From a virus (lineage: Duplodnaviria > Heunggongvirae > Uroviricota > Caudoviricetes), in IMG/VR virus record IMGVR_UViG_3300048574_000421: a stretch of 64,000 nt of DNA; one strand, written 5' to 3'. This document shows positions 5,882 through 40,418 of this stretch, piece after piece. The position numbers and the translations under genes were made by a program. The first letter of the stretch is position 1. Every line of letters starts with the position of its first letter. Below the pieces are notes generated by a model. The model worked only from the letters and a program-made list of their open reading frames with translations. It ran no database searches and was not told the DNA's origin.

Positions 5882-6616
5882 TTACTCTTTTAATTTTAAA
5901 TCGTCTGAAGTAAGTTGCTTATTTAATTTTAATGCTTTATCGATTTGTGCGAAAAGTTTTCTTCGTTTATCGCATTGTTTTAAAAAATGAGAGTTTTTTC
6001 TAATAGAATAAACATCTCTAAACGAACCTTTTAAACAAATAGATTTTGGAAACAAACCACATGAACCACCTAAACTAAAAATCAAATTCCCTAGAAACTC
6101 ATCTTCTTCTCCGTAAAAACCATCAAAACAAGAATTAAAAAGTCTTTGTTCTTGAAGAGCTTTGATTTTTGAAATCATTTCTTTTTTTATAACAAACCCG
6201 CAAGTATAAACGTTGTTATAATAATCTTGAAACACAGGATTTAGTGTAAATTCATCTTTTGTAAAAATAGTACGACAATCATTTTCTATTCTTATCAGGC
6301 ATATGTCATACAAACTTACTGCTTTTAAAACAAGTTCTTCATTCAAACCCGAAGGTATTCTATCGCCATCTAAGAACAATGTGTCATCATTTTCTAAAGC
6401 ATTCAAACCCAAATCACGAGTATAACCAGCCATAAAGCCTGAACCAGTCTCATTAAGAACAAATTTTTCTCCAAGTTCTGCAGCTTTTTTTGCACCTTCA
6501 AAACATCTATCAAATGCAAAAACTCTTTTAAAACTGGGAAGACATGCTTTTAAAGCGTCTCTCATTTCTTCAATATTTTGTTGTTGATCTTTTGAAACTA
6601 TAACAACATTGCTCAT
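5882..6616 (-). CDS. Glycosyltransferase, GT-A fold (GT2-like)
   Basis: VVIVSKDQ, AGYTRDLGL, LFLDGD (DxD), FDGFYGEEDEFL. Confidence 0.8.
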   Translation of the reverse strand: MSNVVIVSKDQQQNIEEMRDALKACLPSFKRVFAFDRCFEGAKKAAELGEKFVLNETGSGFMAGYTRDLGLNALENDDTLFLDGDRIPSGLNEELVLKAVSLYDICLIRIENDCRTIFTKDEFTLNPVFQDYYNNVYTCGFVIKKEMISKIKALQEQRLFNSCFDGFYGEEDEFLGNLIFSLGGSCGLFPKSICLKGSFRDVYSIRKNSHFLKQCDKRRKLFAQIDKALKLNKQLTSDDLKLKE

Positions 6617-6631
6617 TTTTACCTCAATACT

Positions 6632-6910
6632 TTAGTTGCGAACATAACAAAATGTTTTTAAACTTCTGATAGCATTAGCATATTTCAATGCAGGAATTTG
6701 ACTTGCAGCATCCTCGTTAAAATAACTATCTTTTAAATTCTCTCTATTTTGTGGGTCTTCAAAAGAAAAAATACATTTTGAGCTTTCTTTGTCAGTCTTG
6801 ACTATCTTGCAACCTACACACTGTAGAAATGATGCAAAATACAAATCACTTGTTTTAATAATATTGCTCATTACTGGGCTCCTTAGAATTACTGCATTAA
6901 TCATTTTCAA
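6632..6910 (-). CDS. DUF5659-like small protein (probable start MSNIIKTSDLY)
   Basis: KTSDLYFASFL..G.KI......FSFED...Y..AIRSLK pattern. Confidence 0.6.
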   Translation of the reverse strand: MKMINAVILRSPVMSNIIKTSDLYFASFLQCVGCKIVKTDKESSKCIFSFEDPQNRENLKDSYFNEDAASQIPALKYANAIRSLKTFCYVRN

Positions 6911-7050: not shown

Positions 7051-10000
7051 GTGAAAATGGCATATAATGAACGCCTCATCGATTCAACATTAAATCAAGT
7101 AATTGATAATCTTGTAAATTATGTTGCAACATCGACAAATACAATTCGAATACCATCAAACATGACTGTCATAGGAAACATAACAGTTCCAAAATCGTGT
7201 TCACTATTCTTTTCAAATGGTGCTAGGTTGATTCATAGCACTTATACGCTTACATTTCATGGAAATATAGTAGGCGACCCAATGTGGCAAATATTTGATG
7301 GTACAGGAGTTGTAACGTTTAATAATGGCTCTGTACCTCATGTTAGACCTGAATGGTGGGGTGTAGATTATTCTGTAGATTGCACATCATCAGTCCAAAA
7401 AGCTATTAATTCAGTTTCTACTGGTGGTGTTGTAATTTTATCAGCAGCAAACTACATTATCAATGGTCCTCTTACAAATAATACGGGTGCTATCATCGTA
7501 AACTATAGCAACGTCAATTTATTTAATCTTCTTCCTGCAAGTTCTTTTTTTAGAGGCGTCACTTTTGGAGGTTCTCTAGAAGCTAAAACTGGTATTTTTA
7601 ACAGTGCATCAATTCCAAAACTTTCAAATCTTAATACTAATGGAGTTATAAGAACATCAGGAAGTGATGGAACATTAATTGTTGATACAGTTGGTGTTTT
7701 TGGACCTACAGGAGTTCAAGGTTCAACAGGAACACAAGGTTCTACTGGTCTAAAAGGTGAAACTGGTATCCAAGGTTTTACTGGACTATCAGGTGTTGGT
7801 GCTCAAGGTACTACAGGAATACAAGGTGAAACTGGTGTCAAAGGTGAAACTGGCATTCAAGGTGAAACAGGAATAAAAGGTGATACAGGAATACAAGGTA
7901 TCACAGGTATTGGTTATATAGGTTCTGATGGTGCAACAGGACTTCAAGGTGAGACTGGTATTCAGGGTCAAACTGGGACACAAGGTGAAACTGGATTACA
8001 AGGTAGAACGGGTATTGGTGGTTCTACAGGCTTTAGAGGATTTACTGGTGCTCAAGGTTTACAAGGCCAAACAGGTATACAAGGTCATACTGGATTACAA
8101 GGTACTATAGGAATTCAAGGTGCAACTGGTTCTCAAGGCTTTACAGGTTTTGGTGTAACTGGTAATCAAGGACATACAGGTCTTGGTTTCACAGGTTTGC
8201 AAGGACCTACAGGAGTACAAGGAACAACAGGTACGCAAGGTCAAACAGGCGTACAAGGTAGTACTGGTATAGGTTCTGTAGGAATACAAGGTGAAACAGG
8301 AGTTGGTTATACAGGAATTCAGGGACATACAGGTATCCAAGGCGACACAGGTTTGGGTGCAACAGGACTTCAAGGTATTACAGGAACAATTGGTGAAACA
8401 GGACTACAAGGTAGTACTGGAGTTCAAGGAGTAACAGGATTAGGTTATACTGGTATTCAAGGTCCTACTGGAGCTTATGGTGGTCCTCAAGGGGATACAG
8501 GCCTTCAAGGCGTTCAAGGACCTACTGGAGCTTATGGAGGTCCTCAAGGTGCTACTGGTCTGCAAGGCATACAAGGTCAAGGTGGACCCCAAGGTGATCA
8601 AGGAGAGACTGGTTTAGCTGGCATCGGAATTACTGGTGTTCAAGGTTTAACAGGTTCACAAGGACAAACAGGAATTCAAGGTCAAACTGGTTTAGGAATT
8701 CAAGGTCAAACTGGTGTACAAGGTGTTACTGGTACACCAGGAACTCAAGGAATTACTGGTATTCAGGGAAATACAGGTTTTGGTATTCAAGGAACAACTG
8801 GTTTACAAGGCATACAAGGCCAAGGTGGTCCTATAGGTGACAAAGGTGAAACAGGAGTTGGTTTTACAGGTATTCAGGGACAAACAGGACTTCAAGGTAT
8901 TCAAGGAAATACAGGTATTGGCGTTCAAGGTCCTACAGGAGCTTATGGTGGTCCTCAAGGTGAAACAGGAGTTAAAGGTGAAACAGGAGTTCAGGGAGAA
9001 ACAGGACTTCAAGGCATAAAAGGTGACACAGGAGTACAAGGCGACACTGGAATTCAAGGATTCACTGGTGTAAAAGGTGATACAGGTATAGGTTTCCAAG
9101 GAGAGACAGGAACTCAAGGCATACAAGGTTCTACTGGTACAATTGGAGAAACAGGATTACAAGGTATTACAGGATTAATTGGTTATACAGGAATTCAGGG
9201 AACACAAGGACCTACAGGAGCTTATGGTGGTCCTCAAGGTGAAACTGGTCTTCAAGGTCCTGCAGGAATTCAGGGCGAAACAGGTTCTTTAGGCTTAGGT
9301 GGATCTACAGGTTTACAAGGCTCAACAGGTCTTCAAGGCCTTGTAGGATCACAAGGTTTAACAGGTATACAAGGTGAAACAGGTCCGCAAGGTTACGGAG
9401 AAACTGGTCTTCAAGGCGTAACTGGGTCACAAGGTTCTGCAGGTCTCCAAGGAGAGACAGGAATACAAGGTAATACAGGTTTTGGACTTCAGGGCGTTAC
9501 TGGTTTCCAGGGAGAAACAGGATCACAAGGTGATAGTGGAGAAACAGGATTACAAGGTACAACTGGTCTAGAAGGAGTCACTGGTTTACAAGGCATAACA
9601 GGTTTTCAAGGAACAACAGGACTTTATGGTTTTACAGGAGTTCAGGGAGAAACAGGCTTACAAGGTAATGGTGCAACAGGATTACAGGGAACAACAGGTA
9701 TTCAAGGTTCTACAGGTTTTCAAGGAACAACAGGTCTTGCTGTAAATCCTTCTTCATTTTCTTTTAATAATGTTGCACGCTATGAAGTGATCGGAGCTTC
9801 TGGTGAAGAAGTATGGGTTGAGTCAAGTTCTACAGTTTATCAAAGGCTTACTTGGTCAAGAACAGGAACATCATTAACGATTGACTTGAATAATCATGGT
9901 CACACAGCAGGAAACAGAGTTATTGTAAGAAATACTAACGTTGATTATCAAGTTGCTACTATTGATTCAACCACACAAAACTCATTTGTTATAACGACAT

Positions 10001-10386
10001 CTAACACAGGTGATGCTTCAGGTACTGAAGGAGCATATACACTTGGTTTTACATTTTCTCATACAGGTTCTCCAAAAACTGGCGGAGTATTATCTGCTCC
10101 TACAGGTAGTCATGCTGATGTACAGTTAATTGCATTGAGAATAAGAACAGGTACACGTTCAAGCACTACTTACGAACTGACTGTTCCTGCAAGCGCTGTA
10201 AATGGTGCAGGTACTAATACTTCTTTAGGCAATTGCTTTATACCAGATTTTAATGTTCGTTCTGATAATGACAATCTTGGCGCTGTTGGTTCTACAATAG
10301 TTGTCAATAATTCATCATCAGGTTATAACGTTTTCCGTTTTGGAAACTTGGGATCACTATCGGTAATTATCGTAACTCATTTCTAA
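7051..10386 (+). CDS. Collagen-like virion fibre protein with a tailspike-like N-terminal region
   Basis: About 690 aa of (GxT-GxQ)n with short interruptions; N-terminal [19 protein letters not shown]; beta-rich C-terminal domain. Confidence 0.85.
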
Positions 10387-10405
10387 AAAGAGAGTAGAAT
10401 GTTTT

Positions 10406-13400
10406 ATGGCAAGAATAATAAATGGGTCTCTTTATGTAAGCTCATATGACCCAACAAGTACTCCGGGAGAGTACACTTTCACTAATGCTGTATTTGATAA
10501 TCAAGCTGATGCAACAAATCTTGGTTCATTAGACATTCAAATTGGATTTATAGTTTATGTACCTGCTTTAGATCCTAATTTGATGACTCTTGTACCTGGT
10601 GTTTGTCATAGGTACAGAATTACATCAATACAAAATGCAGATGGGTATTACATATCAGCAACAATCTTTTGGGATGAAGATGGTGAACAAATAGATCTTC
10701 CTGCTTTTGAATCTTATGCTATTTGTTGCGAAAACACATCTGCTTTAGATTTAGGCTTATATGCTTCCAATGAAATTTATTCTAATTTACCTGGTGGCAT
10801 TGTTGCAAGTGCAGCTACTATAGATGCTAAACGGATTTTAGATAAACTTGGAGTAACAGGTTTAAACGGGTTGACAGGTCTCCAAGGAAATACTGGATTT
10901 CAAGGTCAAACTGGACTGCAGGGTACTACTGGTTTAAATGGCATACAAGGATCTACAGGTCTTGATGGTCTCCAAGGTAACACAGGTCTTCAAGGTGTTA
11001 CTGGTCAAAATGGAATCCAAGGTGACACAGGTTTAGTTGGGTCACAGGGTACTACTGGACTACAAGGTTTCCAAGGAACAACAGGTCTAACAGGTCAAAC
11101 TGGAATTGCTGGTAGTCAAGGAAACACTGGTTTGCAAGGAAGTACAGGATTAGAAGGTGCTCAAGGTATAACAGGTGTTCAGGGTAATACAGGCATCGAA
11201 GGTATACAAGGTACTACAGGTTTAGATGGTGTTCAGGGAATTACAGGTCTTCAAGGCCAAACAGGAGTTTCTGGTAATCAAGGTGCTACAGGTTCGCAAG
11301 GCAATACTGGTTTACAAGGTTTTACTGGTATTCAAGGAATTACTGGGTTTGTTGGCGAAACAGGCGTACAAGGTACAACTGGACTTATTGGTCTTCAAGG
11401 TCAAACAGGTTTAGATGGATCACAAGGTACTACTGGTCTTGTTGGTGAAACTGGCTTAAAAGGTGAACAAGGAGATACAGGTCTCCAAGGATTAACGGGA
11501 GTTCAAGGTGAAACAGGACTTCAAGGAATACAAGGTTTTACTGGTGTGCAAGGAGTTCAAGGAAATACTGGTACACAAGGAACTACAGGGATTCAAGGAG
11601 TACAAGGAGATACAGGTACTCAGGGAATTCAAGGAACTACAGGTTTACAGGGAGAAACTGGAATTCAAGGAGACACAGGTACACAAGGTACTCAGGGAGT
11701 TCAAGGAACTACAGGGTTAACAGGTGATCAAGGTTCTACTGGTCTCAATGGTCTACAAGGAGTTCAAGGAAGTACAGGACTGAAAGGAGATCAGGGTACT
11801 ACAGGTTTTATTGGTGAAACAGGTGTACAAGGTACTACAGGTCTTATTGGTATTCAGGGTTTTACTGGTTTAGAAGGATCACAAGGAAACACTGGATTTC
11901 AAGGTACAACTGGACTTATTGGTCTTCAAGGTCAAACAGGTTTAGAAGGTTCACAAGGTACAACAGGCTTAGATGGAATACAGGGTACTACTGGATTACA
12001 AGGCTCTACAGGTACTGAAGGAATTCAAGGTGAAACAGGCTTACAAGGTTTCACTGGTTTAGAAGGTATTCAAGGCGTTACAGGTCTTGATGGTATTCAA
12101 GGAGCTACAGGAATTCAAGGTTTTACGGGTTCTCAAGGTCAAACAGGTTTAAATGGTATACAGGGTAACACGGGAATACAAGGAATAACAGGTCTTGAAG
12201 GAATTCAAGGTACTACAGGTCAACAAGGTATTCAGGGCGAAACTGGTCTTGTTGGTGTAACAGGAATTCAAGGTATTACAGGTCTTATAGGAGAAACAGG
12301 TTCACAAGGTCGCACTGGTCTTCAAGGTTTTCAGGGTCAAACTGGAATTCAGGGTGTTACTGGTCTACAGGGAATAACAGGCATTATTGGATCAACAGGT
12401 TTTCAAGGCTTAACAGGTTTACAGGGTATTCAAGGTAATACAGGTACCCAAGGAATTCAGGGAGTAACAGGATTACAAGGTACTACAGGACTAGAAGGAC
12501 TCCAAGGTCAAACTGGCTTAGATGGAATACAGGGTGACACTGGTATTCAAGGATCTACAGGCTTACAAGGTGCACAGGGCAATACTGGACTTCAGGGATT
12601 TACTGGAATACAAGGCATACAAGGTTTAACTGGATTGATTGGCAGTCAAGGTCAAACAGGAATTGAGGGTATTCAAGGAGACACAGGAGTTCAAGGTCAA
12701 ACAGGATTACAAGGACTTGTAGGTCAAACTGGTATACAAGGTGATACAGGAATTCAAGGAGGAACTGGTGTCCAAGGATTTCAGGGAATCACTGGTATTC
12801 AAGGGACAACAGGTCTAATTGGTATTCAAGGTAGTACAGGTATACAAGGTTTTACTGGTTCTAATGGATTACAAGGTACTACAGGTACACAAGGTTCAAC
12901 TGGTGTCCAAGGAATTACAGGTTTGATTGGATCTACTGGTTTACAAGGTCTAGACGGATTAGAGGGTCAACAAGGTTTAACTGGAATACAAGGATCAACA
13001 GGAATTCAAGGTGTTACAGGTTTAACTGGATCAACTGGAATACAAGGTCTTCAAGGTACACAAGGAGTAACAGGACTCATAGGTCTTACGGGTCAAACTG
13101 GTATTCAGGGAATAACAGGTGCGATAGGAATAACAGGTATTCAAGGCTCTACTGGATTACAAGGACAAACAGGACTCCAAGGTATACAAGGTATTACAGG
13201 TTTGAGAGGTTTTACAGGTCTACAAGGTCAAACTGGAATTCAAGGAGCTACTGGAATACAGGGAACAACAGGTGTACAAGGTCAAACAGGAATTCAAGGA
13301 ACAACAGGTTTGATTGGTACTACAGGATTAAATGGTATTCAAGGAGTAACAGGTTTTGTAGGACAAACCGGTATACAAGGTATTCAAGGTTCAACTGGTG

Positions 13401-13855: not shown

Positions 13856-13873
13856 CATAAATGGGAGCACTTA

Positions 13874-15964: not shown

Positions 15965-15966
15965 TC

Positions 15967-18339: not shown

Positions 18340-18343
18340 TTGT

Positions 18344-18559: not shown

Positions 18560-18585
18560 TTGTGCTATAGAATGATTAGGAAAAT

Positions 18586-18774
18586 ATGGAAATAAATATT
18601 TTAAAAGATAACGAAATTCTCATAATAGCTGAAACTGAATTTGAGAGAAGTTTTTGTACTCTTCTTGAAGGAAAAATTTTTGATACTACAGTTAAACGGG
18701 GTTTGTCTCCTGCTGATATTGTAGGGATTAAATTAACACCAAGACAAGAAAAGAAAGAAAAATGTCAAGCTTAA
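18586..18774 (+). CDS. Hypothetical protein
   Basis: 62 aa, AGGA RBS, overlaps the next gene. Confidence 0.55.
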   Translation: MEINILKDNEILIIAETEFERSFCTLLEGKIFDTTVKRGLSPADIVGIKLTPRQEKKEKCQA

Positions 18775-31200: not shown

Positions 31201-34200
31201 AGACCAGTAGATCCTTGAAGACCTTGTGCACCTGTAGTCCCTTGGATTCCATTAAGTCCAGTAGTACCCTGATTACCATTTAACCCTGTCAATCCTTGAA
31301 GTCCAGTATCTCCTTGAATGCCTTGTGGTCCTTCAAGACCTGTGTTTCCCTGAATTCCATTTTGACCTGTAGTACCTTGGATTCCAATTAAACCAGTCTC
31401 TCCTTGAGTACCATTTAACCCTGTCAATCCTTGGAGACCTGTGATACCCTGATTACCGTCTAAACCTGTAAAGCCTTGTATGCCAATACCTGTAGATCCT
31501 TGATTTCCTTCAGCACCAGTTGCACCTTGTAAACCATTTAAGCCAGTTGCTCCTTGTTGTCCAGTTTCTCCTTGAATACCTTGATTACCATCAAGACCAT
31601 TTAATCCTGTAGAACCTTGAACTCCTTCAAGTCCAGTAGTTCCTTGATTACCTTGAGCACCTGCTAATCCTGTTTGACCTTGTATACCATCTAAACCTGT
31701 AATACCCTGTAAACCATTTGAACCAGTAACACCTTGAGTTCCATTTTGACCTGTCACACCTTGTGTTCCGTTCAAACCTGTGTTTCCCTGAATTCCTTCT
31801 AACCCAGTTATTCCTTGCAGACCTATTGTTCCAGTTTGGCCTTGTAATCCTGTTAAACCTTGAATTCCAGTAGTACCTTGCAAACCATCTAAACCTGTGC
31901 TTCCTTGTGTTCCCTGTAAACCAGTAGAACCTTGAGTACCAACTAAACCAGTTGTGCCCTGAATTCCTGTACTACCTTGTTCACCTTGAGCTCCTTCTAA
32001 ACCTGTAGCTCCTTGATCACCTTGTAAACCTTGTACTCCAGTAACACCCTGTGTACCATCAAGACCATTTAATCCTGTTAAACCTTGCGATCCAGTACTA
32101 CCTTGTTCTCCCTGTAAACCATTAAGTCCTGTTTGGCCTTGTGTACCTGTCTCACCTTGATTACCAAGTAAACCAGTGACACCTTGTGAACCCGTAACTC
32201 CTTGATTACCATTAAGACCACTTAAACCTGTTTCACCCTGTAGACCAAGTCCTGTAGAGCCCTGAAGTCCTTGTGCTCCTGTTTCACCTTGAAGACCTGT
32301 TACGCCAGAAGTTCCTATAGTTCCTGTACTACCTTGAGAACCTGAAACACCTGTGTTTCCTTGAATTCCAGTAACACCCTGTGTTCCATTTTCTCCTTGC
32401 AAACCAGTAAAACCTTGAAACCCTGTGACACCTTGAGTTCCTTTTACAGCAAGACAAAAGTTTGTTTTAGAATTATCTGAAAAAGAATTGCTATGATTGA
32501 TATAAGTTAAAGAAGGAAATCTAACATAACCTGTTGCGTCTTCAGCATCAGCATTTATAGAATAACTAGCAATTCTTGAAGCATCTTTTTCATCTTGTAT
32601 ATAGATGTAAGAACCTGCTTTACCTAAAAAAAGTAAGAAACTAGAAATATCTACTGCAGAATCATTTAAGTTGTCGACAAATGCTGCTGTAACCAAAGAC
32701 AAATCTGAACTATTAAGTTTAAAATTTCCCGAACCTGGATCAGAATCTGAGGTATTATTAGCAAAACGATATAAAGCACAAGAAGCTGACACACCATCAA
32801 GACCTTGAGTACCTGTAACTCCTTGAATACCTGTGTTTCCTTGTGATCCCTGTAAACCTGTTGAACCTTGAACTCCATCAACTCCTGTAATACCTTGAGT
32901 ACCTTCTACACCAGTTGTTCCTTGTACTCCATTTATCCCAGTGTCACCTTGCAGACCTTGTAAACCCGTAACACCCTGAAGCCCTTGAGAACCTGTATTT
33001 CCTTGAATTCCTGTTGCACCATTTAATCCTGTAAAACCTTGTAATCCTTGTCCAGTTTCGCCTTGAATTCCTGTTATTCCTCTTAATCCTGTCTGTCCTT
33101 GTCCCCCAGAAACTCCTGTTGAACCTTGTAGACCATTTAATCCTGTCAATCCTTGAGAACCAGTGTGACCTTGAACTCCTTCAAGTCCAGTAGTTCCTTG
33201 ATTACCTATTAAACCTGTTTGACCTTGTGTTCCAGTTTGACCTTGTTGTCCCGTAGTACCTTGACTACCACTTAATCCTGTCAAACCTTGTAAACCTGTA
33301 GATCCTTGATCGCCTATCTCGCCTTGTGAACCTATTCCAGTTTGACCTTGTAAACCTGTTGTACCACGCAAACCTGTAACACCTTGTTCTCCTTGATATC
33401 CTGTAGATCCTTGAATACCAGTATTACCTTGACTTCCTGTAGCACCTTGAGGACCATTAAGACCTGTTATACCTTGAAGTCCTGTATTACCCTGTGCACC
33501 AGTCAATCCTTGTACGCCTTGAGAACCAGAAAGACCTGTAGTTCCTTGTTGACCATTTAAACCTGTGAATCCCTGTGAACCTGTAGATCCTTGTAATCCT
33601 GTAATACCTTGGTTACCTATAGTACCCTGTAATCCTGTTTGTCCTTGAAGGCCTGTCTGACCCTGTGAACCTGTGCTACCTTGAAGACCGTCAAAACCTG
33701 TTGTACCTTGTAATCCAGTATTTCCTTGAAGTCCTGTCTCTCCCTGAACTCCAGCAGTGCCTTCTAAACCTGTAACACCTTGTATTCCTGTATCACCATT
33801 TGAACCTTGTAATCCTGTCACTCCCTGCAAACCAGTTGCACCAACACCGGAAAGACCTGTAGTACCCTGAGCACCAGTTTCTCCCTGTTGTCCTTCTAAA
33901 CCTGTTGCACCTTGAGTTCCTGCTTCACCTTGTAGACCTGTCTCTCCTTGTATTCCTGTATCACCATTGTTTCCAGAGACACCAGTTACACCTTGAAGAC
34001 CAGTTTGACCAACTCCAGCAAGTCCTGTAGCTCCTTGAGCTCCAGTAATCCCTTGTAAATTGCCTAAACCAGTAATATTACCAGTGATAGCCAAATTACC
34101 TTCTAAAAATAAATCTCCTGTTACAGTCAAACCACCGTTCAATTGATTGTCAAGAGTCGTTATATTGGCTTTTTGTCTACCACTTGTAAGTATATATCCT

Positions 34201-37200
34201 TCTGTTGTTGTAGCAATGAAAACACCATTACCACTACAATTTGAGTATATAGAAAGGTCAGGTGTTGTCCGTTCTGTCCATGTTATACCATCTGTAGAAG
34301 TCATAATTTTTTTTGTAGAAGTTTGATACGCTGCAGTAGCTACAAAAATACCTTCACCATAACTAATACTTGTTATAGGTTGTGTAAAAGGCACAGTTTG
34401 TACAGACCAGTTTACACCATCAGAAGATGTAAGTAGAGAAGGATCAGAACCTATTTGAACACCACCTGCCATCACAAATTTTCCATTACCATAACATACG
34501 CCAAATATTGAAAGACTTGGCACTGGAGGTGCAACAGTTGTCCATGAAGTTCCTGAAGATGATAAAAACACACGACCATCTACACAAACAATTACAAAAG
34601 TGTTATTCCCGAAACAAGAAGTCGAAGGTGAGTTATCAACAGGTGGAATTAAAGATGTCCAACTGACACCATCATGAGATGTCATAAATCTGTTTCCAGG
34701 TGTATCATATGCTGCTGCTACAAAAATACCATTACCGTAAGATACAGTAACCCAACCTAATGTGTTATCCGATGCAGCTCTACGTGTCCAGTTAATACCA
34801 TCAGATGATGTTAAAACTCTATCATTAACACCATTTGTACTTACAGCAACAAATAATCCGTTACCATAACAAATTCCACCCCAAAAATCATCTCCAGTAA
34901 TATTACGTGAAGTCCAATTAACACCATCAGGTGATGTTAATAAAACATTACCTGAAGATGCTAAAGCAACAAACATGCCATTCCCATAACAACATCTCAC
35001 TAAACTTAAAAGTTGATTTGGAGTTCTTGTTGTCCAAGTTGTGCCTATAGTTGTATCAGCAGAAATACCAAAATATGAAGCAGGAACAGATTTTAAAATG
35101 TTAGAACCTTCTTCTTTTACAATAACACTCCCAGGAGAAGAAGACTCTTGCGTATTTAAGTCTACAGAATCAGTAAAGTAATGTAAACCATTATATTGAT
35201 TAATAGATGAATTTGATTTATCTATAGAAAAGCCACTTGACATAACTCTATTGCCAGTACCACTATTTGCTACAGCTATAAAAGAACCATTACCATAACA
35301 TATTGACGACCAATCATTTGTTGCTGAAGTCTTTATTGACCAAACAATACCATCAGACGATGTCATGACGCGGTCATTTGTTCCTGTATTAGATATAGCA
35401 ATAAAAAGACCATTACCATAACATACAGATTTCCAGTTATTATTTAATGCTGAAGTTCTACTTGTCCAAGTAATACCATCAGGAGAAGTCATTACACGGT
35501 TATTCGTTCCTGTATCAGCAACAGCAACAAACAAGCCATTTCCATAGCACACTGAAGTCCAATTATTGTCTATTGCTGAAGTCCTGATAGTCCAAGTAAA
35601 ACCATCAGGTGATGTCATCACTCTATTACCAGTTCCACTATTAGATACAGCAACAAATAAACCATCACCATAGCATATCGAAGTCCAACTATTATTTGCT
35701 GCTGAAACTCTAGCTGACCAGTTATTACCATCAGGTGAAGTCATTACTCTATTGTTTGAACCATTCCCGCTAGCTACAGCTACAAATAATCCATTCCCAT
35801 AACAAACAGAAGACCAGTTATTATTATTAGTAGCATTTTTTACATACCAAGTCACACCGTCACTTGAAGTTATTACTCTATTTGTTGCACCTGTATTAGC
35901 TAAAGCAACATATAACCCATCACCATAACAAACAGCGATGTAATTGTTATCAAGAATGTTGTTTCTTGTATACCATGTACAACCATCATGAGAAGTCATT
36001 ATTCTATTAAGACTTCCTGATGTAGCTACAGCAACAAAAAGATCTTTACCATAGCATACTGAAGACCAGTTGTTATCTGCAGCACTAGTTTTACTTTCCC
36101 AATTAATTCCTGATATTATATCTACACCTGCAACTTCAAGATTCCCAAACATTTTAACATCGTTATTAACAAACTTATGTGTATGTTTTTCTTGTTCATA
36201 TGCTTCTTCTAAATCACCGGATGTCATGACAGGAGAATAAGCACCACTACTTGCTACAGCCACAAATAATCCATTACCATAACAAACAGAACGCCACGTG
36301 TTATATTCTCTCAAATATCTTATAGTCCAAGTAATACCATCAGGAGATGTCATCACACCATCACATTTACCTCCAGATGAAAGCTGTGCAACAGCTACAA
36401 ACAATCCTTTACCATAACAAACGCAAGTCCAATAGTTATCTACGGGAGTATATCTTGAAGTCCAAGTGATACCATCAGGTGAAGTCATCACACTATTATT
36501 TGTCCCTGTAGCAGACACTGCTACGAACAATCCCTTTGCATAACAAACACTAAGCCATTGATTAGGAGATGCTGGTGTTCTACTTGTCCAAGTAATACCA
36601 TCAGGAGACGTCATCACACTTCCCTCTGCAGATACTGCTACAAATAAACCATTACCATAACAGAGTCCCCACCAGCTGTTATCAGCTGCAGAAGTTCTAC
36701 TTGTCCAAGTAATACCGTCAGGTGAAGTCATCACACGATTATTTGTTCCTGTTTGTGCAACAGCTACAAACAAGCCATTACCATAACATACAGACACCCA
36801 CCCATTGCTTGAAGCAGGAACTCTACTTGTCCAAGTAATACCATCAGGAGATGTCATCACAGAGCCTGGTGAGACAGCAACAAATAATCCATTACCATAA
36901 CATACTGCTATCCATGCAGTATCAATAGCAGGTGTTCTGCTTGTCCAGTTTATACCATCAGGTGAAGTCATTACTTGATTATTCGACCCACTAACTGAAA
37001 CAGATACAAACAAACCATTACCATAACAGACACCAAACCAAGCATTGTTTGATGCTGCAGATCTTTTTGTCCAAGTTACTCCAGCATTGGTTGAAACACC
37101 TGATACATATAAATCATTTGTTATTGTTACTTCATTATTAATAAATCTGTGTGAATGTTGCTCTTGTTCATACATTTCTATTATTCTACCTGATGTCATT

Positions 37201-38555
37201 ATTCTGCCCATATACTCGACTGCAACAAAGACACCGTTCCCGTAACATACTGATGTCCAGTAACCTTGTAAAAGTTGTGTTTTTAATGTCCAAGTAACAC
37301 CATCATTTGAAATCATCACAACATAATCTTCATCAGTAAATGCTACGACAACAAACATCCCATTACCATAACACACAGTTTGCCAACCTGCAATAAAAGA
37401 TGATGTAAGTGGAGTTATAGCTGTCCATGTAATACCATCAGAAGAATACATAAATGAATTACTATAAGTATTGTTTGCTACAGCAACAAAAACACCATTT
37501 CCATAACACACAGAAGACCAAGCATTATTATTAGGACTTGTTCTAATTGTCCAAGTGACACCATCAGGAGATGTCATTATTCTATTATTTGTCCCTGACC
37601 TTGCAACTGCAACAAACAAGCCATTTCCATAACACACACATTGCCAATCATTGTCAGCTGCACTAGCTCTAATTGTCCAGTTGATACCATCAGGAGATGT
37701 CATCACACGATTTCCAGTTCCACTCCATGCAACAGCAACAAATAATCCATTACCATAACAAATTCCAAGCCAATTATTATTTGCTGGTGCTATTCTAGTG
37801 GTCCAATTGATACCATCAGGTGATGTCATTATTCTATCGCCAGTTCCACTCCATGCAACAGCAACAAATAGACCATTACCAAAACACACACAAGTCCAAG
37901 ATTGATCTGATGGTGTAGATCTATACGTCCAATTAACACCATCAGGGGATGTCATTACAGAAGTATTTGTTTCACTAGCAGATAATGCTACGAAAGTGCC
38001 ATTCCCATAACAAACACTCATCATCATCTCATTATAAGTGCTTGATGATATTGACCAAGATTCTCCAGCTGCAGGTTGAACAATACCTGATTTTCCTGTA
38101 GCTCCTATATATCGGTAACCAGTTATTTTAAAAGGTTTAGCAAAAGCAGATGTAGAACCGTTAAAAGTTAATATACCAGTTTGATAATCAAAAATCCAAG
38201 ATGATGCGTCTGTAGGGAATATCTCTGTGTTATTATTTTGAAAAAGTCTTATTTTATATGCTGTACCATATTTATCGCTTATCCAGTTTTTAAGACGAAC
38301 ACCACCGCTATAAGCATAATAACATTGTTGATTTGCAACAGAAGTGTCTTCAGTTAAAGTAAAAAGCGTATAATCTTGAGCTACATTCATTTTTGTAGCT
38401 TCAAAGGGAGTAGGGTCAATATTATCTGTCCACACTTCATTAATATTAATGTTTACAGTATTATCACCAATCTCTTCATAAAACCCTTTAGTGCTACTTG
38501 TTGTTCTTTTATTAATCAACGTCTTAAAAGATCGATCTTCTTTTGACCAAGCCAC
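25215..38555 (-). CDS. Giant (4446 aa) fibre/adhesin: nine 7-bladed beta-propellers plus two collagen segments
   Basis: 63 copies of a ~43-aa repeat (W..VCYGNGLFVAV...RVMTSPDGITWT, Asp-box-like) in groups of 7; collagen at approx. 30310-32445 and 32780-34060; GTG start with AAGGAG RBS. Confidence 0.9.
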   Translation of the reverse strand: MAWSKEDRSFKTLINKRTTSSTKGFYEEIGDNTVNININEVWTDNIDPTPFEATKMNVAQDYTLFTLTEDTSVANQQCYYAYSGGVRLKNWISDKYGTAYKIRLFQNNNTEIFPTDASSWIFDYQTGILTFNGSTSAFAKPFKITGYRYIGATGKSGIVQPAAGESWSISSSTYNEMMMSVCYGNGTFVALSASETNTSVMTSPDGVNWTYRSTPSDQSWTCVCFGNGLFVAVAWSGTGDRIMTSPDGINWTTRIAPANNNWLGICYGNGLFVAVAWSGTGNRVMTSPDGINWTIRASAADNDWQCVCYGNGLFVAVARSGTNNRIMTSPDGVTWTIRTSPNNNAWSSVCYGNGVFVAVANNTYSNSFMYSSDGITWTAITPLTSSFIAGWQTVCYGNGMFVVVAFTDEDYVVMISNDGVTWTLKTQLLQGYWTSVCYGNGVFVAVEYMGRIMTSGRIIEMYEQEQHSHRFINNEVTITNDLYVSGVSTNAGVTWTKRSAASNNAWFGVCYGNGLFVSVSVSGSNNQVMTSPDGINWTSRTPAIDTAWIAVCYGNGLFVAVSPGSVMTSPDGITWTSRVPASSNGWVSVCYGNGLFVAVAQTGTNNRVMTSPDGITWTSRTSAADNSWWGLCYGNGLFVAVSAEGSVMTSPDGITWTSRTPASPNQWLSVCYAKGLFVAVSATGTNNSVMTSPDGITWTSRYTPVDNYWTCVCYGKGLFVAVAQLSSGGKCDGVMTSPDGITWTIRYLREYNTWRSVCYGNGLFVAVASSGAYSPVMTSGDLEEAYEQEKHTHKFVNNDVKMFGNLEVAGVDIISGINWESKTSAADNNWSSVCYGKDLFVAVATSGSLNRIMTSHDGCTWYTRNNILDNNYIAVCYGDGLYVALANTGATNRVITSSDGVTWYVKNATNNNNWSSVCYGNGLFVAVASGNGSNNRVMTSPDGNNWSARVSAANNSWTSICYGDGLFVAVSNSGTGNRVMTSPDGFTWTIRTSAIDNNWTSVCYGNGLFVAVADTGTNNRVMTSPDGITWTSRTSALNNNWKSVCYGNGLFIAISNTGTNDRVMTSSDGIVWSIKTSATNDWSSICYGNGSFIAVANSGTGNRVMSSGFSIDKSNSSINQYNGLHYFTDSVDLNTQESSSPGSVIVKEEGSNILKSVPASYFGISADTTIGTTWTTRTPNQLLSLVRCCYGNGMFVALASSGNVLLTSPDGVNWTSRNITGDDFWGGICYGNGLFVAVSTNGVNDRVLTSSDGINWTRRAASDNTLGWVTVSYGNGIFVAAAYDTPGNRFMTSHDGVSWTSLIPPVDNSPSTSCFGNNTFVIVCVDGRVFLSSSGTSWTTVAPPVPSLSIFGVCYGNGKFVMAGGVQIGSDPSLLTSSDGVNWSVQTVPFTQPITSISYGEGIFVATAAYQTSTKKIMTSTDGITWTERTTPDLSIYSNCSGNGVFIATTTEGYILTSGRQKANITTLDNQLNGGLTVTGDLFLEGNLAITGNITGLGNLQGITGAQGATGLAGVGQTGLQGVTGVSGNNGDTGIQGETGLQGEAGTQGATGLEGQQGETGAQGTTGLSGVGATGLQGVTGLQGSNGDTGIQGVTGLEGTAGVQGETGLQGNTGLQGTTGFDGLQGSTGSQGQTGLQGQTGLQGTIGNQGITGLQGSTGSQGFTGLNGQQGTTGLSGSQGVQGLTGAQGNTGLQGITGLNGPQGATGSQGNTGIQGSTGYQGEQGVTGLRGTTGLQGQTGIGSQGEIGDQGSTGLQGLTGLSGSQGTTGQQGQTGTQGQTGLIGNQGTTGLEGVQGHTGSQGLTGLNGLQGSTGVSGGQGQTGLRGITGIQGETGQGLQGFTGLNGATGIQGNTGSQGLQGVTGLQGLQGDTGINGVQGTTGVEGTQGITGVDGVQGSTGLQGSQGNTGIQGVTGTQGLDGVSASCALYRFANNTSDSDPGSGNFKLNSSDLSLVTAAFVDNLNDSAVDISSFLLFLGKAGSYIYIQDEKDASRIASYSINADAEDATGYVRFPSLTYINHSNSFSDNSKTNFCLAVKGTQGVTGFQGFTGLQGENGTQGVTGIQGNTGVSGSQGSTGTIGTSGVTGLQGETGAQGLQGSTGLGLQGETGLSGLNGNQGVTGSQGVTGLLGNQGETGTQGQTGLNGLQGEQGSTGSQGLTGLNGLDGTQGVTGVQGLQGDQGATGLEGAQGEQGSTGIQGTTGLVGTQGSTGLQGTQGSTGLDGLQGTTGIQGLTGLQGQTGTIGLQGITGLEGIQGNTGLNGTQGVTGQNGTQGVTGSNGLQGITGLDGIQGQTGLAGAQGNQGTTGLEGVQGSTGLNGLDGNQGIQGETGQQGATGLNGLQGATGAEGNQGSTGIGIQGFTGLDGNQGITGLQGLTGLNGTQGETGLIGIQGTTGQNGIQGNTGLEGPQGIQGDTGLQGLTGLNGNQGTTGLNGIQGTTGAQGLQGSTGLQGITGLEGQQGITGIEGLQGATGAQGTAGSQGLTGLEGLQGVTGVQGTTGLAGEQGFTGLEGSQGQTGTQGVTGSQGLQGSTGLNGSQGVTGSQGTTGYGIQGQTGIQGITGLNGTQGITGIQGVTGIQGTGTQGITGLRGFTGFQGVTGPTGGQQGVTGLQGTTGSQGITGLSITGQTGVQGITGEQGFTGLAITGETGLQGITGLRGTTGIQGVTGPFGGPQGATGLRGSTGVQGVTGQGITGPQGFTGLFGITGVRGFTGLQGTTGPSGGPQGATGLQGVTGPSGGQQGATGVGNVIAGYDWVSRTTPTNNFYGLCYGNGLFVATSNSGTGNRVMTSPDGVNWTSRTSAADNSWGSVCYGNGLFVSVASTSSPPNKAMTSPDGINWTARATPTDNNWYKVCYGNGLFVAVAASGTGNRVMTSPDGITWTIGTTPADYPWVSVCYGNGLFVAVANGTGVPNRVMTSPDGITWTLRTTPVDNAWIDVCYGNGLFVSVANSGTGNRVMTSPNGIDWTIRTSPVDNQWLGVCYGNGLFVSVAQTGSGNRVMISSDGINWTTRTTTVANNWYAVCYGNGMFVAVSFSGTNDKVMTSGFIEEIDEQYDHTHNFINNDLNVRGSLNVSDLEVVPGIEWTLRDSSVDADWSKVCYGNGLFVAVAYQGTGTNNRIMTSPDGVNWTTRYNPVDIGWYAVCYGNGLFVAVSYTGTGNQVMTSPDGITWTNRTSAASNQWYNICYGNGLFVAVAISGTGNRVMTSPDGIVWTTRTSAANNSWAGLCYGNGLFVAVAATGTNNRVMTSSDGITWTIQTTLVDNNWQAVCYGKGLFVAVASSGTNNRIMTSPDGINWTVRTTPIDVAFYSICYGDGMFVAVAYSGTGSRVMTSPDGINWTSRITAADLLWYGACYGNGMFVAVAGSGTTGRVMTSGFVKQIDVEDNHSHSIFNNDVDIEGDLVVSGKNVTLSGTGWTSRTTPVDNSWYGVCYGNGLFVATSITGTGNRVMTSPDGANWTSRTSAADNNWYKVCYGNGLFVAVSNSGTGNRVMTSPDGIVWTSRSSAADNYWFSVCHGNGLFVAVSYTGTLNRVMTSPNGIDWTLRTTPVDNSWVGVCYGNGLFVAVSETGTNNRVMTSPDGINWTIQTTPVDNSWISVCYGDGLFVAVSYSGTSNRVMTSPNGVDWTIRTTPVDNNWYNVCYGEGLFVAIAYSGVGNRVMTSPDGITWTIRRSAVDNGWVNVCYGNGCFVAVSYTGTGNRAMTSGAVKTIDEQNKHSHKLINNDLDITGSLTVSNIDMMPGIKWTTRASIVDNQWLGVCYGNGIFVAVASVDGLDNRILTSSDGVNWTIRTNPVNNEWISVCYGNGLFVAVSYTGTGNRVMTSPDGITWTSRTSAANNDWTSICYGEGLFVAVAYSGTGNRVMTSPDGITWTLRTSAANNDWFAVCYGNGLFVATSITGTNSRVMTSPDGITWTIRTSAADNNWRGLCYGNGLFVAVSTSGVKNRVMTSPDGITWTSRVSAADNSWASVCYGKGMYVAVAYSGTGNRVMTSPDGITWSLRTSAANNNWRGVCYGRGMFVAVAYSGTGDRVMTSGAMDVLEEQTNHNHDLMIGSQNIVGTQTVSGLQNITGIQTITGTQNITGSMNFSGLKVNPAHDWVTRTSAADNLWYGVCYGNGLFVAVASSSTSNRVMTSSDGVNWTIRTSAADNNWYDVCYGNGVFVAVAHSGASNRTMISYDGISWSLVTPAAANQWDGVCYGNGLFVAVSSNGTGNRVMTSPDGITWTSRTNPVDNNWYKVCYGNGLFVAVALTGTGNRVMTSPDGITWTIQTSAADNDWYDICYGNGLFVAIAYNGTDRVMTSPDGITWTSRSAAVNNQWVSVCYGNGLFVAVSNSGTSNRVMTSPDGITWTSKTSVIDNSWASICYENGIFVAVGYSGTNTRVMTSGYLKTLDTQNNHTHNIINNTLTIRGNMFLSGIKTGTSQANAGAVAGEVWLNTSDQSLRVGV

Positions 38556-38573
38556 TTTATATCTCCTTAAAAA

Positions 38574-40418
38574 TTATGTTCCAGACACTTGCATTCTTGA
38601 AGCTTTACCCGTAGATGTATTTCTCAATGTAACTCTCATAAAAACAACGCCACTAGAATTAGTAGATGTCATAGTTCCAAAAGACATATTCAAAGTGCTT
38701 CCAGAAGATGAACCTAATCTACATCCATTACCATCACCAAAAGCTCTACCTGCATCTAACCAATTACTTTCGCCTGGCAATCTTACTTCAAAATTAAGAC
38801 TACCAGAACCAACTGCTGATATTGCTGTATAAAGTATACCAGTAAAAACGATACTCATACTTGAGTGTGCTACTCCAATGTTAGCAGCCCAAACACCTAC
38901 TTGATTACCACTGAAAGTACTGTAATTGTTTCCTGATTGAGCAGGCAAATATCCTGAAGTAAAGTTAATATTTGGATAATCCCATACTGAATTATAAAGC
39001 ATAAGATTTCCGTTCGAAAGCGCCAATGAACTGTTCCAATTACCTGTAGGATTACTATAATTCACTGGAATAACTGAAAAGTCTGTAGAAAGCAACCATC
39101 TGTAATTTTCATCAAACATATAGATATTTCCATTAGTACTATATGTAGACGAATAAGTGTTAATCAATCTATTTTCTGTACTTGATGTCGATGTTGCAGT
39201 TTTTGTCGATGGTTTTCTAGCAGTCACACTAAGTGTTGCATTTATACTATAAACATTACTTACTGATATTGCAACACCAGATACGCTCAAATTAAAAGCT
39301 GCATTATATGCAAATGAACTACCATCTATAGGTACATCTACAGAAGATATTCCTGACATAACATAAGAAACTGGATTTGTAGGTCTTATAGCTTTATTAG
39401 CTAAATTTGTTATAGTACATGAAACGTTAAAAGTATCACCATTTGAATAATATCTTATTCCTGATAAATATCTTGTACTTGATAAAGTGTTTTGAACTAC
39501 AGTAGCACCTGTAGAAAAAACTGGTGTAGGATCTTGGTCGTCATACCATACTTTTGTTATTGATGTTACTTGATTGACGCTCGTTGAAAGATATCTCATT
39601 GTATGATATTTGTAACCTTCTGTTACTTGATTGTAATTTATTCGAGCATTTGCTTTTCGCCAAATTGTATTGTAAGTAGCAACAGATAAAATTTCAATTG
39701 TATTTGTGACTCCAACACCAAGCGTAACATCTCTACTTGATAATAACACGCCATCTTCAAAATGTTGTACCGCTCCTTCATCACCACTAAATGTAGAACC
39801 AACTTTAAAGTCAGTAGACGTGTTAGGACTAGATAAATTATATGTTCCATCAATAACATAGTCAGTTATAGAATCACCTGCAACTTTTCCATCTTGATAC
39901 CATGAAGATGCTAATCCTGTAGGTAATATTGCATTGAATTTTGTTGTGTTAGATAATACAAGTGAGCCAGATAAAGCATTAGGTGGTGCAGGAGATATAG
40001 CTAACAACAATTTGTTTGTATCATCAAGAGCATTTGCTGTTATTGTTTCTGATTCCCATGCAAAGATACCACCTGTATAACCTACACCTAAAGGCAAATC
40101 ATTAGCAGAACTTACACCAGCAGCTCCTGTTACACCTTGTATTCCTGTATATCCAAAACCAGCTTGGCCTGTTATGCCTTGCAATCCTGTTGTACCCTGT
40201 AGCCCAGTTTCGCCTTGGATACCTGTACTACCTTGATTACCTATAAAGCCCTGCAACCCAGTGGCTCCTGAGGCACCCGTCTGTCCCGAGAGACCTGTTA
40301 TGCCTTGAAGACCGTTTAAACCTGTAGCTCCTTGAATGCCTTCTAAGCCTGTTATACCCTGTAGACCAGTTGCACCATTACCAGAGCCACCAAAATTTGT
40401 TCTTAAAAAACGTGACAT
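38574..40418 (-). CDS. Virion structural protein with a short N-terminal collagen segment
   Basis: About 85 aa GxT/GxQ followed by Ser/Thr-rich beta domains. Confidence 0.75.
   Translation of the reverse strand: MSRFLRTNFGGSGNGATGLQGITGLEGIQGATGLNGLQGITGLSGQTGASGATGLQGFIGNQGSTGIQGETGLQGTTGLQGITGQAGFGYTGIQGVTGAAGVSSANDLPLGVGYTGGIFAWESETITANALDDTNKLLLAISPAPPNALSGSLVLSNTTKFNAILPTGLASSWYQDGKVAGDSITDYVIDGTYNLSSPNTSTDFKVGSTFSGDEGAVQHFEDGVLLSSRDVTLGVGVTNTIEILSVATYNTIWRKANARINYNQVTEGYKYHTMRYLSTSVNQVTSITKVWYDDQDPTPVFSTGATVVQNTLSSTRYLSGIRYYSNGDTFNVSCTITNLANKAIRPTNPVSYVMSGISSVDVPIDGSSFAYNAAFNLSVSGVAISVSNVYSINATLSVTARKPSTKTATSTSSTENRLINTYSSTYSTNGNIYMFDENYRWLLSTDFSVIPVNYSNPTGNWNSSLALSNGNLMLYNSVWDYPNINFTSGYLPAQSGNNYSTFSGNQVGVWAANIGVAHSSMSIVFTGILYTAISAVGSGSLNFEVRLPGESNWLDAGRAFGDGNGCRLGSSSGSTLNMSFGTMTSTNSSGVVFMRVTLRNTSTGKASRMQVSGT

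Follow-up and report, generated by a model that had tools for sequence, protein, structure and literature searches.

A candidate O-glycosylation cassette beside the collagen-like fibre genes of a phage G-like megaphage

A 64,000-nucleotide stretch of DNA (the window) from IMG/VR virus record IMGVR_UViG_3300048574_000421 encodes the fibre module of an uncultured phage G-like megaphage. It carries four glycosyltransferase (GT) genes that colinearity with their relatives identifies as fragments of a single, conserved multidomain enzyme, and on sequence grounds this cassette is probably a dedicated O-glycosylation line for the phage's own collagen fibres. That the phage glycosylates its own fibres was proposed in an initial annotation of the window, and the reading draws support from the co-occurrence of such enzymes with collagen genes, from the enzyme family and from homology to collagen-linked bacterial GTs.

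Results

Genes are named by their first coordinate in the window (Table 1). Collagen is encoded by 7051, 10406, 25215 and 38574, with Pfam Collagen matches in the fibre genes ranging from E 1e-140 to 6e-12; every Collagen match of the 211-kb record is confined to these four genes and lies at most 15 kb from the GT cassette. Their Gly-X-Y repeats total 2,676 residues, with 354 Thr and 344 Gln at position Y and only 22 Pro, in agreement with the initial description of four Pro-poor collagen genes with hundreds of Y-position Thr. Thr recurs at every second triplet (Q to T 279, T to Q 196 and T to T only 7 times), and position X is occupied by L, I or V ahead of Gln and by polar residues ahead of Thr.

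Table 1. Features of the fibre and glycosyltransferase region of the window
Feature	Coordinates	Strand	Size and details	Basis
Probable GT-A-fold glycosyltransferase	5882..6616	-	244 aa; FLDGDRIP DxD-like motif	ESM Atlas model
Collagen-like fibre protein 1	7051..10386	+	1,111 aa	Gly-X-Y scan, Pfam Collagen
Collagen-like fibre protein 2	10406..13855	+	1,149 aa	Gly-X-Y scan, Pfam Collagen
TNF/C1q-like head of 10406 (model)	13478-13852	+		Structure model, Foldseek
Fibre-associated protein	13874..15964	+	696 aa	PHROG virion structural protein
Tail-fibre-like protein	15967..18339	+	790 aa	phrog_1591 tail fiber, 4.7e-12
Cassette piece 1, SgtA-like GT2 + TPR + SAM methyltransferase	18762..20312	+		Pfam
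Small inserted gene	20335..20643	+	ATG at 20344; stop overlaps 20636 start (ATGA)	
Piece 2, final methyltransferase strand + GT-B N-terminal half	20636..21073	+		Colinearity with fused homologues
Two inserted ORFs between GT-B halves	21070..22130	+	116 and 237 aa	No Pfam or PHROG match
Piece 3, GT-B C-terminal half + GT2	22133..23407	+		Pfam, colinearity
Free-standing HNH homing-endonuclease gene	23388..24122	+		PHROG endonuclease/HNH 1e-13
Piece 4, GT4 (GT-B)	24119..25192	+		Pfam/PHROG
Giant fibre protein	25215..38555	-	4,446 aa	Collagen, DUF6242, EPTP
Fibre protein with short collagen	38574..40418	-	614 aa	phrog_5073 tail fiber, phrog_8578

In 7051, 618 aa of interrupted Gly-X-Y in 18 runs (about 177 nm if triple-helical) separate a 214-aa N-terminal domain, 66% identical by BLAST to that of a collagen protein in locus L004, from a 214-aa C-terminal domain. 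In 10406 a 148-aa N-terminal domain is followed by 882 aa of unbroken Gly-X-Y (about 252 nm), a Thr/Ser-rich linker with the sequence TSTTTATTTSTT and a C-terminal head. The head was modelled with a pLDDT of 93.5, and its top Foldseek matches were the TNF-like lectins BC2L-C-N and PLTL (TM 0.79-0.82), followed by exosporium BxpB/ExsFA, C1q and BclA (BclA TM 0.60); the domain has 1,563 homologues. By this modelling 10406 is a PF01391 collagen-like protein of BclA/C1q-like architecture, with a head predicted to be trimeric. The giant protein 25215 has 1,101 aa of Gly-X-Y (∼315 nm) at residues 1502-2742, flanked by arms of propeller-like repeats at residues 1-1501 and 2743-4446 (DUF6242, EPTP and internal repeats), and the collagen of 38574 is an N-terminal segment of 75 aa. 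The C-terminal ∼110 aa of 13874 also end collagen ORFs in loci L159, L139, L073/L083 and L040 (BLAST). The annotation of phage G gave no pointer to the place at which the fibres attach.

The lead enzyme of the cassette, 18762, had been described as a GT2-TPR-methyltransferase, and all three domains were found by Pfam: GT2 at residues 6-116 (PF00535, 5.8e-22), TPR at 176-290 and Methyltransf_11 at 356-508. Within its DxD-type motif, WLDADDE, residues D82, D84 and D85 are invariant in 29 homologues, the family alignment (A1) shows no variation in the DADD and LNLGCG motifs, and the GT catalytic motifs of the cassette are intact. No transmembrane segment was found in 18762, a soluble GT2-TPR protein, or in the other GTs, which makes a Gtr-type or lipid-carrier route improbable. 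Matches in the PDB were to GmaR (4e-29) and SunS (2e-12), and the family profile matched GmaR at 1e-40 and SunS at 2e-29, compared with only ∼1e-9 for polysaccharide GT2s. These affinities place 18762 in the protein/peptide-glycosylating GT2 group, with that activity predicted, and suggest a putative initiating protein glycosyltransferase of the SgtA-like kind.

Residues 3-353 of 18762 are 39% identical (E 1e-82) to a Clostridium protein of ∼355-370 aa whose gene lies 187 bp from a gene for a 1,020-aa Gly-X-Thr collagen (locus L336), and a 358-aa Paeniclostridium protein is 36% identical (5e-74). More generally, the first ∼350 aa are 36-39% identical to clostridial and peptostreptococcal proteins of equal size and context, enzymes of spore-forming Firmicutes. 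In the tree, the window GT falls in a phage clade of eight rows (starred), five of them with collagen, which is sister to the clade of these Firmicutes enzymes. The family has more than 6,000 homologues at E ≤ 1e-10, many of them on contigs of 200-590 kb. A single-protein scan of IMG/VR returned no close relatives; the IMG/VR relatives were obtained by an alignment-based scan.

The initial annotation listed 18762, a split 20636/22133 and 24119 as separate GTs. Its domain assignments for 20636/22133 and 24119 stand; their separateness does not, since in relatives the four pieces form one polypeptide of about 1,344-1,474 aa. 18762 ends one strand before completion of the methyltransferase fold, and across the join with 20636 the A1 consensus is continuous from ...GFIIDxxENY into ...GxxTPS...VIEDAxE; the two pieces are fused in loci L005, L006, L008 and L058-L069. 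Piece 3, with a Pfam GT2 match of 1.5e-19 and a weak Glycos_transf_1 match, is colinear within single polypeptides of L040 and L058-L069, and it is fused to piece 4, whose EX7E motif spans residues 262-270 of 24119, in L005, L006, L009, L012, L040 and L058-L069. The cassette lies on the same strand as fibre genes 7051-15967 and directly behind them. It is bracketed by collagen genes, the nearest collagen repeat upstream being 4.9 kb away, not abutting, and the 3′ end of 25215 lying 22 bp past the end of the GT4 gene. Promoter and terminator scans found sites no more frequently than in shuffled sequence.

The DNA between the pieces appears to have been gained by gene insertion. A homologue of the small gene 20335 (37% identity) occurs at another place in L005, the 237-aa ORF has an ORF counterpart in L004 with 74% identity, and a homologue of the HNH gene occupies a different junction in L004; neither the 116- nor the 237-aa ORF matched a Pfam or PHROG family. 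The arrangement is that of known genes in pieces such as Aeh1 nrdA/mobE, where one ancestral ORF is translated as separate pieces with a mobile endonuclease gene at a junction. Self-splicing introns were considered as the cause of the splits. Since an Rfam search of 18000-25600 at E ≤ 1 came back empty, the fold of the 336-nt insert is barely better than that of its shuffles (z -1.8), and a small gene with an overlapping stop is present, the intron reading was dropped in favour of gene insertions.

Co-occurrence of GT2-TPR genes with Thr-collagen genes, a check named in the initial annotation, was found in phages as well as in bacteria. In the dereplicated set, 15 of 61 phage GT2-TPR loci had collagen of 100 aa or more, against 1 of 82 control loci defined by random 14-mers (odds ratio 26, p ∼1e-5). 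The fraction rose to 10/13 among phage loci with the full cassette, and collagen directly adjoins the GT in at least five phage lineages. Among the best 80 bacterial loci, 51 have a collagen gene within 8 kb, mostly abutting the GT, and the collagens of these best loci carry Thr at position Y at frequencies of 0.5-0.98. Where bacterial GTs had no collagen, Pfam analysis of the upstream ORFs revealed no alternative acceptor. The bacterial partner collagens have Gly-X-Thr in nearly every triplet, and those of the window alternate Thr with Gln.

Collagen composition was a less useful guide. The Thr/Gln-rich, Pro-poor repeats had been taken as a pointer to glycosylation, and they were rejected as such a signature because only 3 of 120 phage Thr/Gln-collagen loci have a GT2-TPR gene nearby (117/120 do not), so composition alone proves nothing. 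Collagens of this kind are ordinary in phages and no sign of glycosylation, and they evidently fold and work without the enzyme nearby. Collagen linkage was also never seen in a sub-lineage with GT2-TPR+GT4 genes (25 loci in small podovirus-like genomes), of which MW202524 has the gene beside a capsid gene, indicating that acceptor choice in the family is not fixed.

The glycosylation system is larger than the initial annotation had it. A second GT island 11-20 kb upstream of the window contains ∼8 GT domains in addition to the five of the window, bringing the phage total in the 211-kb record to ∼13, and its two further GT2-TPR modules suggest further or different acceptors. A search for phage genes of sugar-nucleotide synthesis found no NTP_transferase and a single epimerase, far away; the donors are therefore presumably host UDP-sugars. 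5882, called a GT2 in the initial annotation, is probably a GT-A-fold glycosyltransferase, a call that is structural only because the protein has no sequence match in Pfam, PHROG or the PDB: the ESM Atlas model of the same protein (pTM 0.86) falls with GT2/GT-A/Glyco_transf_7C clusters at TM 0.7-0.8, while a single-sequence AF2 model was too poor to use (pLDDT 35). The cupin at the window end (63644-64000) was confirmed as such (Cupin_2, 1e-14), and nothing links it to the glycosylation system.

Discussion

The best-characterized counterpart of 18762 is SgtA of C. difficile, a 358-aa protein (GT-A 1-260, TPR 262-358) encoded beside bclA3 that attaches β-O-GlcNAc to collagen-repeat Thr of BclA3 in vitro (PMC7157674), which confirms the precedent cited in the initial annotation. 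Compared by the published description of SgtA, the two share a soluble N-terminal GT2/GT-A domain followed by TPR and a gene near Thr-rich collagen. Unlike SgtA, 18762 is phage-encoded, fused to a methyltransferase and part of a GT2-TPR/GT-B/GT2/GT4 megaenzyme cut into four genes; G-x-T-G-[LIV]-Q takes the place of GPT/GxT as the predicted acceptor repeat, and the window fibres are 10-50 times longer. BclA of Bacillus anthracis resembles 10406 in its N-terminal anchor domain, collagen stalk and trimeric TNF/C1q-like head, for 10406 a predicted trimer, and its collagen Thr bear an oligosaccharide capped with a 2-O-methylated sugar (PMC6222408), a parallel to the combination of GTs and methyltransferase in the window. 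The head of 10406 is nonetheless nearer to BC2L-C-N/PLTL (TM ∼0.8) than to BclA, and in contrast to the BclA nap there are no genes for rhamnose or anthrose biosynthesis and the appendage would belong to a virion, not a spore. Mimivirus likewise combines collagen-like proteins with its own glycosylation machinery in one virus; its L230 lysyl hydroxylase/glucosyltransferase modifies collagen, and giant-virus fibrils carry glycans (PMC4691112, PMC9614988), but the chemistry is that of hydroxylysine-linked glucose, made in a eukaryotic host by unrelated enzymes.

The enzymes might act instead on other proteins of the virion, such as the Thr/Ser-rich linkers, the TNF-like heads, the propeller arms, 13874/15967 or head proteins. 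This seems unlikely, although the TSTTTATTTSTT linker lies next to the 10406 head and in small phages the GT2-TPR+GT4 enzymes adjoin a capsid gene in records that lack collagen. In mycobacteriophages, too, phage-encoded GTs from among the structural genes glycosylate proteins of the virion itself; the acceptors are C-terminal tails of the capsid and tail-tube proteins (Freeman 2023, cited by PMC12619734). The enzyme family and the probable acceptor differ here, however, and the major capsid protein and other head proteins of this phage have no Ser/Thr-rich tails. Furthermore, the cassette type follows collagen, homologues of the 25215 repeat arms are absent from GT2-TPR loci, and in bacteria the nearest relatives are partnered by collagen genes.

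It is rather improbable that the targets are host flagellin, S-layer, spore-surface proteins or cell-wall polymers, modified to block superinfection or remodel the cell. GmaR of Listeria and SunS of SPbeta, the nearest solved catalytic domains, both engage a polypeptide acceptor via a helical-repeat domain, and GmaR, the closest, is a flagellin O-GlcNAc transferase; phage GTs are classically tied to serotype conversion (reviewed in PMC12619734), and ∼13 GT domains are more than one fibre glycan seems to require. Set against this, the cassette sits inside the fibre operon with collagen genes on both sides, its association with collagen encoded by the phage is repeated in several lineages, and no flagellin gene (Flagellin_N) was found in the 211-kb record, the cassette neighbours being fibre genes. 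SunS, which is prophage-encoded and acts on a Cys of sublancin, and ThuS are detectable relatives and could suggest that 18762 is a glycocin synthase for a small secreted peptide. That reading is very hard to sustain, given that the scanned neighbours include no precursor peptide, ABC exporter or thiol-disulfide genes and that the collagen-linked clostridial enzymes are far more similar, end to end; neither the acceptors of GmaR and SunS nor their accessory genes were found here. There is just as little to favour glycosylation of hypermodified DNA bases in evasion of restriction: it is the best-known task of phage GTs (Pyle 2024, as cited in PMC12619734), but this family is the TPR-bearing protein/peptide GT group, the 211-kb record has no thymidylate-synthase-like hydroxymethylase, and the genes are located in the late structural region.

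If collagen is the acceptor, then late in infection the GT2-TPR part of 18762, with TPR recruiting the substrate, would move the first sugar from a host UDP-sugar onto Y-position Thr at every second triplet of 7051, 10406, 25215 and 38574. The glycan would be extended by the GT-B (20636 and the N-terminal part of 22133), the GT2 (C-terminal part of 22133) and the GT4 (24119), and modified by the fused methyltransferase of 18762/20636; further sugars may come from 5882 and the second GT island, unless these act on other targets. The outcome would be fibres of 180-315 nm with TNF/C1q-like lectin-fold heads at their tips and a sheath of methylated glycan, analogous to a nap, which may serve helix stability, shielding from proteases or immune recognition, or adhesion. 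A bolder extension, offered tentatively and perhaps reaching too far, is that the phage G lineage of megaphages encodes a glycocalyx of its own, carried on hundreds of nanometres of Pro-free collagen. An SgtA-derived multidomain line would place a methylated hetero-oligosaccharide at every second triplet, glycosylated Thr would stabilise the helix in place of hydroxyproline, and spore-forming Firmicutes, with their exosporium nap, would have exchanged the module with their phages.

Routine annotation still assigns phage GTs to the modification of DNA or of the host surface. To our knowledge, protein glycosylation of phage particles has experimental proof only for mycobacteriophage capsids and tail tubes, and no published account was found that reads phage genes as an SgtA-like collagen glycosylation system. 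If true, collagen glycosylation by the cassette would supply an entire class of GT2-TPR genes in phages with a function, account for the folded state of collagen that runs to hundreds of nm with neither Pro nor Hyp, and provide a soluble, compact pair of enzyme and acceptor with which recombinant bacterial collagens could be glyco-engineered. It would also change the view of how such phages bind receptors, are recognized by the immune system and remain stable in the environment, and the link to exosporium BclA/SgtA suggests that genes have passed between spore surfaces and the appendages of phages.

A conserved multidomain glycosyltransferase divided among four genes

The five glycosyltransferase (GT) domains and the methyltransferase that the initial annotation had placed in the window are all real, with 5882 being a probable GT-A, called solely by structural resemblance. 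The lead gene, 18762 (genes are named by start position), encodes GT2, TPR and methyltransferase domains in that order. Its nearest solved relatives are protein or peptide glycosyltransferases, Listeria GmaR (4e-29) and SPbeta SunS; the family profile matched GmaR at 1e-40 and SunS at 2e-29, and polysaccharide GT2s no better than ~1e-9. More than 6,000 homologues were found, many on contigs of 200-590 kb, and their alignment continues past the 18762 stop codon into the sequence of 20636. Module order is identical in other phages: at L058, L059, L060, L069 and L040, GT2-TPR, the GT-B N-half, the GT-B C-half with GT2, and GT4 form one polypeptide of 1,344-1,474 aa, and at L005 and L006 the same modules are split over two proteins. 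These colinear single- and two-protein versions indicate that the cassette (18762, 20636, 22133 and 24119) is a single conserved multidomain enzyme that three insertions have broken up into four genes, each translated separately. Locus L004 has the same four pieces, with its HNH gene at a different junction, and all of one clade of 511-518-aa homologues share the split after ...LNNY. The cassette inserts showed no intron signal. Catalytic motifs are intact in the cassette proteins, none of which has a membrane segment.

A second glycosylation island lies 11-20 kb upstream of the window. Together the two regions encode ~13 GT domains and three GT2-TPR modules, and the glycosylation system is larger than initially annotated. 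No nucleotidyltransferase gene is present in the phage, and its single epimerase gene lies far off; UDP-sugars of the host presumably serve as donors. The cupin previously grouped with these enzymes is real, but no tie to the glycosylation system was found.

Coordinates of features in the window and on the same record (L407 and L408, stretches outside the window)
Feature	Coordinates	Strand	Description
5882	5882-6616	-	Probable GT-A-fold protein
7051	7051-10386	+	Gly-X-Y 618 aa; predicted helix ~177 nm
10406	10406-13855	+	Gly-X-Y 882 aa, uninterrupted; predicted helix ~252 nm
13874	13874-15964		Collagen-less protein; C-terminal domain, residues 585-693
Insert 1	20313-20635		~100-aa gene; stop overlaps following start (ATGA)
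Insert 2	21070-22130		Two ORFs, function unassigned
Insert 3	23388-24122		Homing endonuclease (HNH) gene
25215	25215-38555	-	4,446 aa; central Gly-X-Y 1,101 aa; predicted helix ~315 nm
38574	38574-40418	-	Gly-X-Y 75 aa; predicted helix ~21 nm
Major capsid protein (MCP)	46175-47053	-	Adjoined by portal, protease and large terminase genes
Cupin	63644-64000	-	Runs off window; Cupin_2 1e-14, weak mannose-6-phosphate isomerase C-terminal match; 23 kb from cassette, past packaging genes
Second island	G000:C1:66049-75325 (L407:6049-15325)	-	1,000-aa GT2 + GT4 + GT2 + TPR protein; kinase-like fragment; methyltransferase; 459-aa GT2-TPR; GT4; GT2 + GT-D protein; DXD sugar-binding GT (Gly_transf_sug)
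Volactin	G000:C1:62755-63852 (L407:2755-3852)	-	365 aa; PF25216, 2.4e-70; phage-encoded actin-family cytoskeletal protein
919-aa protein	L408:1051-3810 (within G000:C1:81051-84779)		Tandem CHB_HEX_C_1/Fn3_assoc domains; may bind carbohydrate
GIY-YIG/NUMOD3	L408:3925-4779 (within G000:C1:81051-84779)		Homing endonuclease gene adjoining that of the 919-aa protein

Phage lineage

The window corresponds to G000:C1:85950-149949 of a 211-kb IMG/VR record. The record probably belongs to a phage G-like megaphage, given that its MCP is ~50% identical to Bacillus phage G gp27, that its GT protein occurs in identical form on a contig of 427 kb, and that the locus has its nearest relative, L004, on one of 424 kb. 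The MCP is also ~50% identical to a protein of a 485-kb uncultured phage. IMG/VR labels the record a provirus of 91% completeness; it is probably what remains of a megaphage genome after trimming.

Collagen-like fibre proteins

All collagen of the record is confined to four genes, with helix lengths computed at 0.286 nm per residue. Their description as Thr/Gln-rich and Pro-poor was borne out: position Y holds 354 Thr and 344 Gln across the four genes, and Pro accounts for 22 of 2,676 collagen residues. The triplets follow a strict grammar, with Thr in every second triplet (Q to T 279, T to Q 196, T to T 7) and position X occupied by L, I or V preceding Gln and by polar residues preceding Thr. 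The C-terminal 125 aa of 10406, for which 1,563 homologues were found, was modelled as a TNF/C1q-type jelly roll (pLDDT 93.5). Its top structural matches were the TNF-like lectins BC2L-C-N and PLTL (TM ~0.8), with exosporium BxpB/ExsFA, C1q domains and BclA next, a resemblance that points to the BclA/C1q design for 10406, in which an anchor carries a collagen stalk topped by a trimeric head.

The arms of 25215 (residues 1-1501 and 2743-4446), on either side of the central collagen, are long propeller-like repeat arrays with DUF6242 and EPTP matches, and the repeats resemble those of loci L102, L109, L123 and L186. The ~110-aa C-terminal domain of 13874 also ends collagen proteins of unrelated phage contigs (L159, L139, L073/L083 and L040) and looks like a second fibre-head type.

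Association of GT2-TPR enzymes with collagen genes

Co-occurrence with Thr-collagen genes was examined at 80 IMG/VR loci with GT2-TPR homologues and 120 loci drawn by random 14-mer, and was found in phages as in bacteria. Once the loci had been dereplicated, 15/61 GT loci and 1/82 controls contained collagen of 100 aa or more (odds ratio 26, p ~1e-5); the 14-mer control loci are shorter, and enrichment normalised per Mb was still ~11-fold. Collagen of at least 200 aa occurred at 10 GT loci and no controls. The GT-linked phage collagens are of the Thr/Gln type, and at least five separate lineages have them immediately beside the GT. By architecture, collagen accompanied 10 of 13 full cassettes (GT2-TPR, GT-B, GT2 and GT4 together), 14 of 38 loci with GT2-TPR alone and none of 25 with only GT2-TPR and GT4. 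The three collagen-less full-cassette loci leave the link unweakened, because one (L005) belongs to a complete 470-kb genome with collagens of 3,081 and 2,338 aa 20-45 kb away, and the others are on records 18-53% complete. A second GT2-TPR of the L005 genome adjoins one of its two distant collagens. By FastTree, the window enzyme falls in a well-supported phage clade (collagen in 5 of 8 rows), sister to a Firmicutes clade, with the deep branches weakly supported.

The two-module GT2-TPR and GT4 type belongs to small phages, most without any collagen. Such loci, L003 (MW202524.1 1-17396) and 25 from IMG/VR (e.g. L020, L025, L030, L043 and L050), are podovirus-like and never collagen-linked. 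In MW202524 the two modules come after the major capsid gene, with further GTs and methyltransferases, and loci of this type may be capsid-directed glycosylation systems.

In the reverse direction, GT2-TPR was present at 3 of 120 phage loci chosen for (GxTGxQ)3. Thr/Gln composition is therefore common in phages and by itself no evidence of glycosylation, and it was rejected as a sign of it.

Bacterial homologues were scanned with one genome per species. The best 80 are nearly all from spore-forming Firmicutes (36-42% identity across residues 1-350), and 51 of these have a collagen-like ORF within 8 kb, most abutting the GT gene, with Thr at 50-98% of partner Y positions. A Clostridium homologue that aligns over its full length at 39% identity (E 1e-82) lies 187 bp from a gene for a 1,020-aa Gly-X-Thr collagen. 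One exception to Gly-X-Thr is a Desulfosporosinus MAG locus (L366), where collagen-like ORFs at 358-1782 and 4514-5713 flank the GT and Y is Gln (0.79-0.85). The bacterial arrangement is that published for C. difficile sgtA, which is immediately upstream of bclA3 (PMC7157674). The precedent invoked in the initial annotation holds: SgtA (358 aa) comprises GT-A (1-260) and TPR (262-358), and the recombinant enzyme puts beta-O-GlcNAc on Thr of collagen-repeat peptides (PMC7157674). Architecture, context and clostridial homologues suggest that 18762 is SgtA-type, SgtA itself being compared by description.

Proposed function of the cassette

The best-supported reading, which we consider reasonably likely, is that 18762 would initiate O-glycosylation in the cytoplasm on Thr residues in the collagen of fibres that the phage itself encodes, with the GT-B, GT2 and GT4 modules lengthening the glycan and the methyltransferase modifying it. 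Acceptors could instead be other virion proteins, host proteins, DNA or a glycocin peptide, each of which has something in its favour but fits the context less well than fibre collagen. The Thr-linked oligosaccharide of BclA is capped by a 2-O-methylated sugar (PMC6222408), and thermal stabilisation of Riftia collagen is credited to galactosylated Thr in the summary given by PMC10141479; by analogy with both, a methylated, stabilising or shielding glycan on the fibres is plausible.

Full-text literature searches found no paper linking phage collagen-like fibres to a dedicated glycosyltransferase. In mycobacteriophages, virion glycosylation is documented on capsid and tail-tube tails, according to work cited in PMC12619734. 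The SgtA/BclA3 principle is itself already known. In contrast to that pair, the enzyme described here is phage-borne, part of a multi-GT line and accompanied by very long Thr/Gln collagens; what appears new, judging from the genes, is that the principle has been moved into phages, fused into such a line and applied to fibres of this kind.
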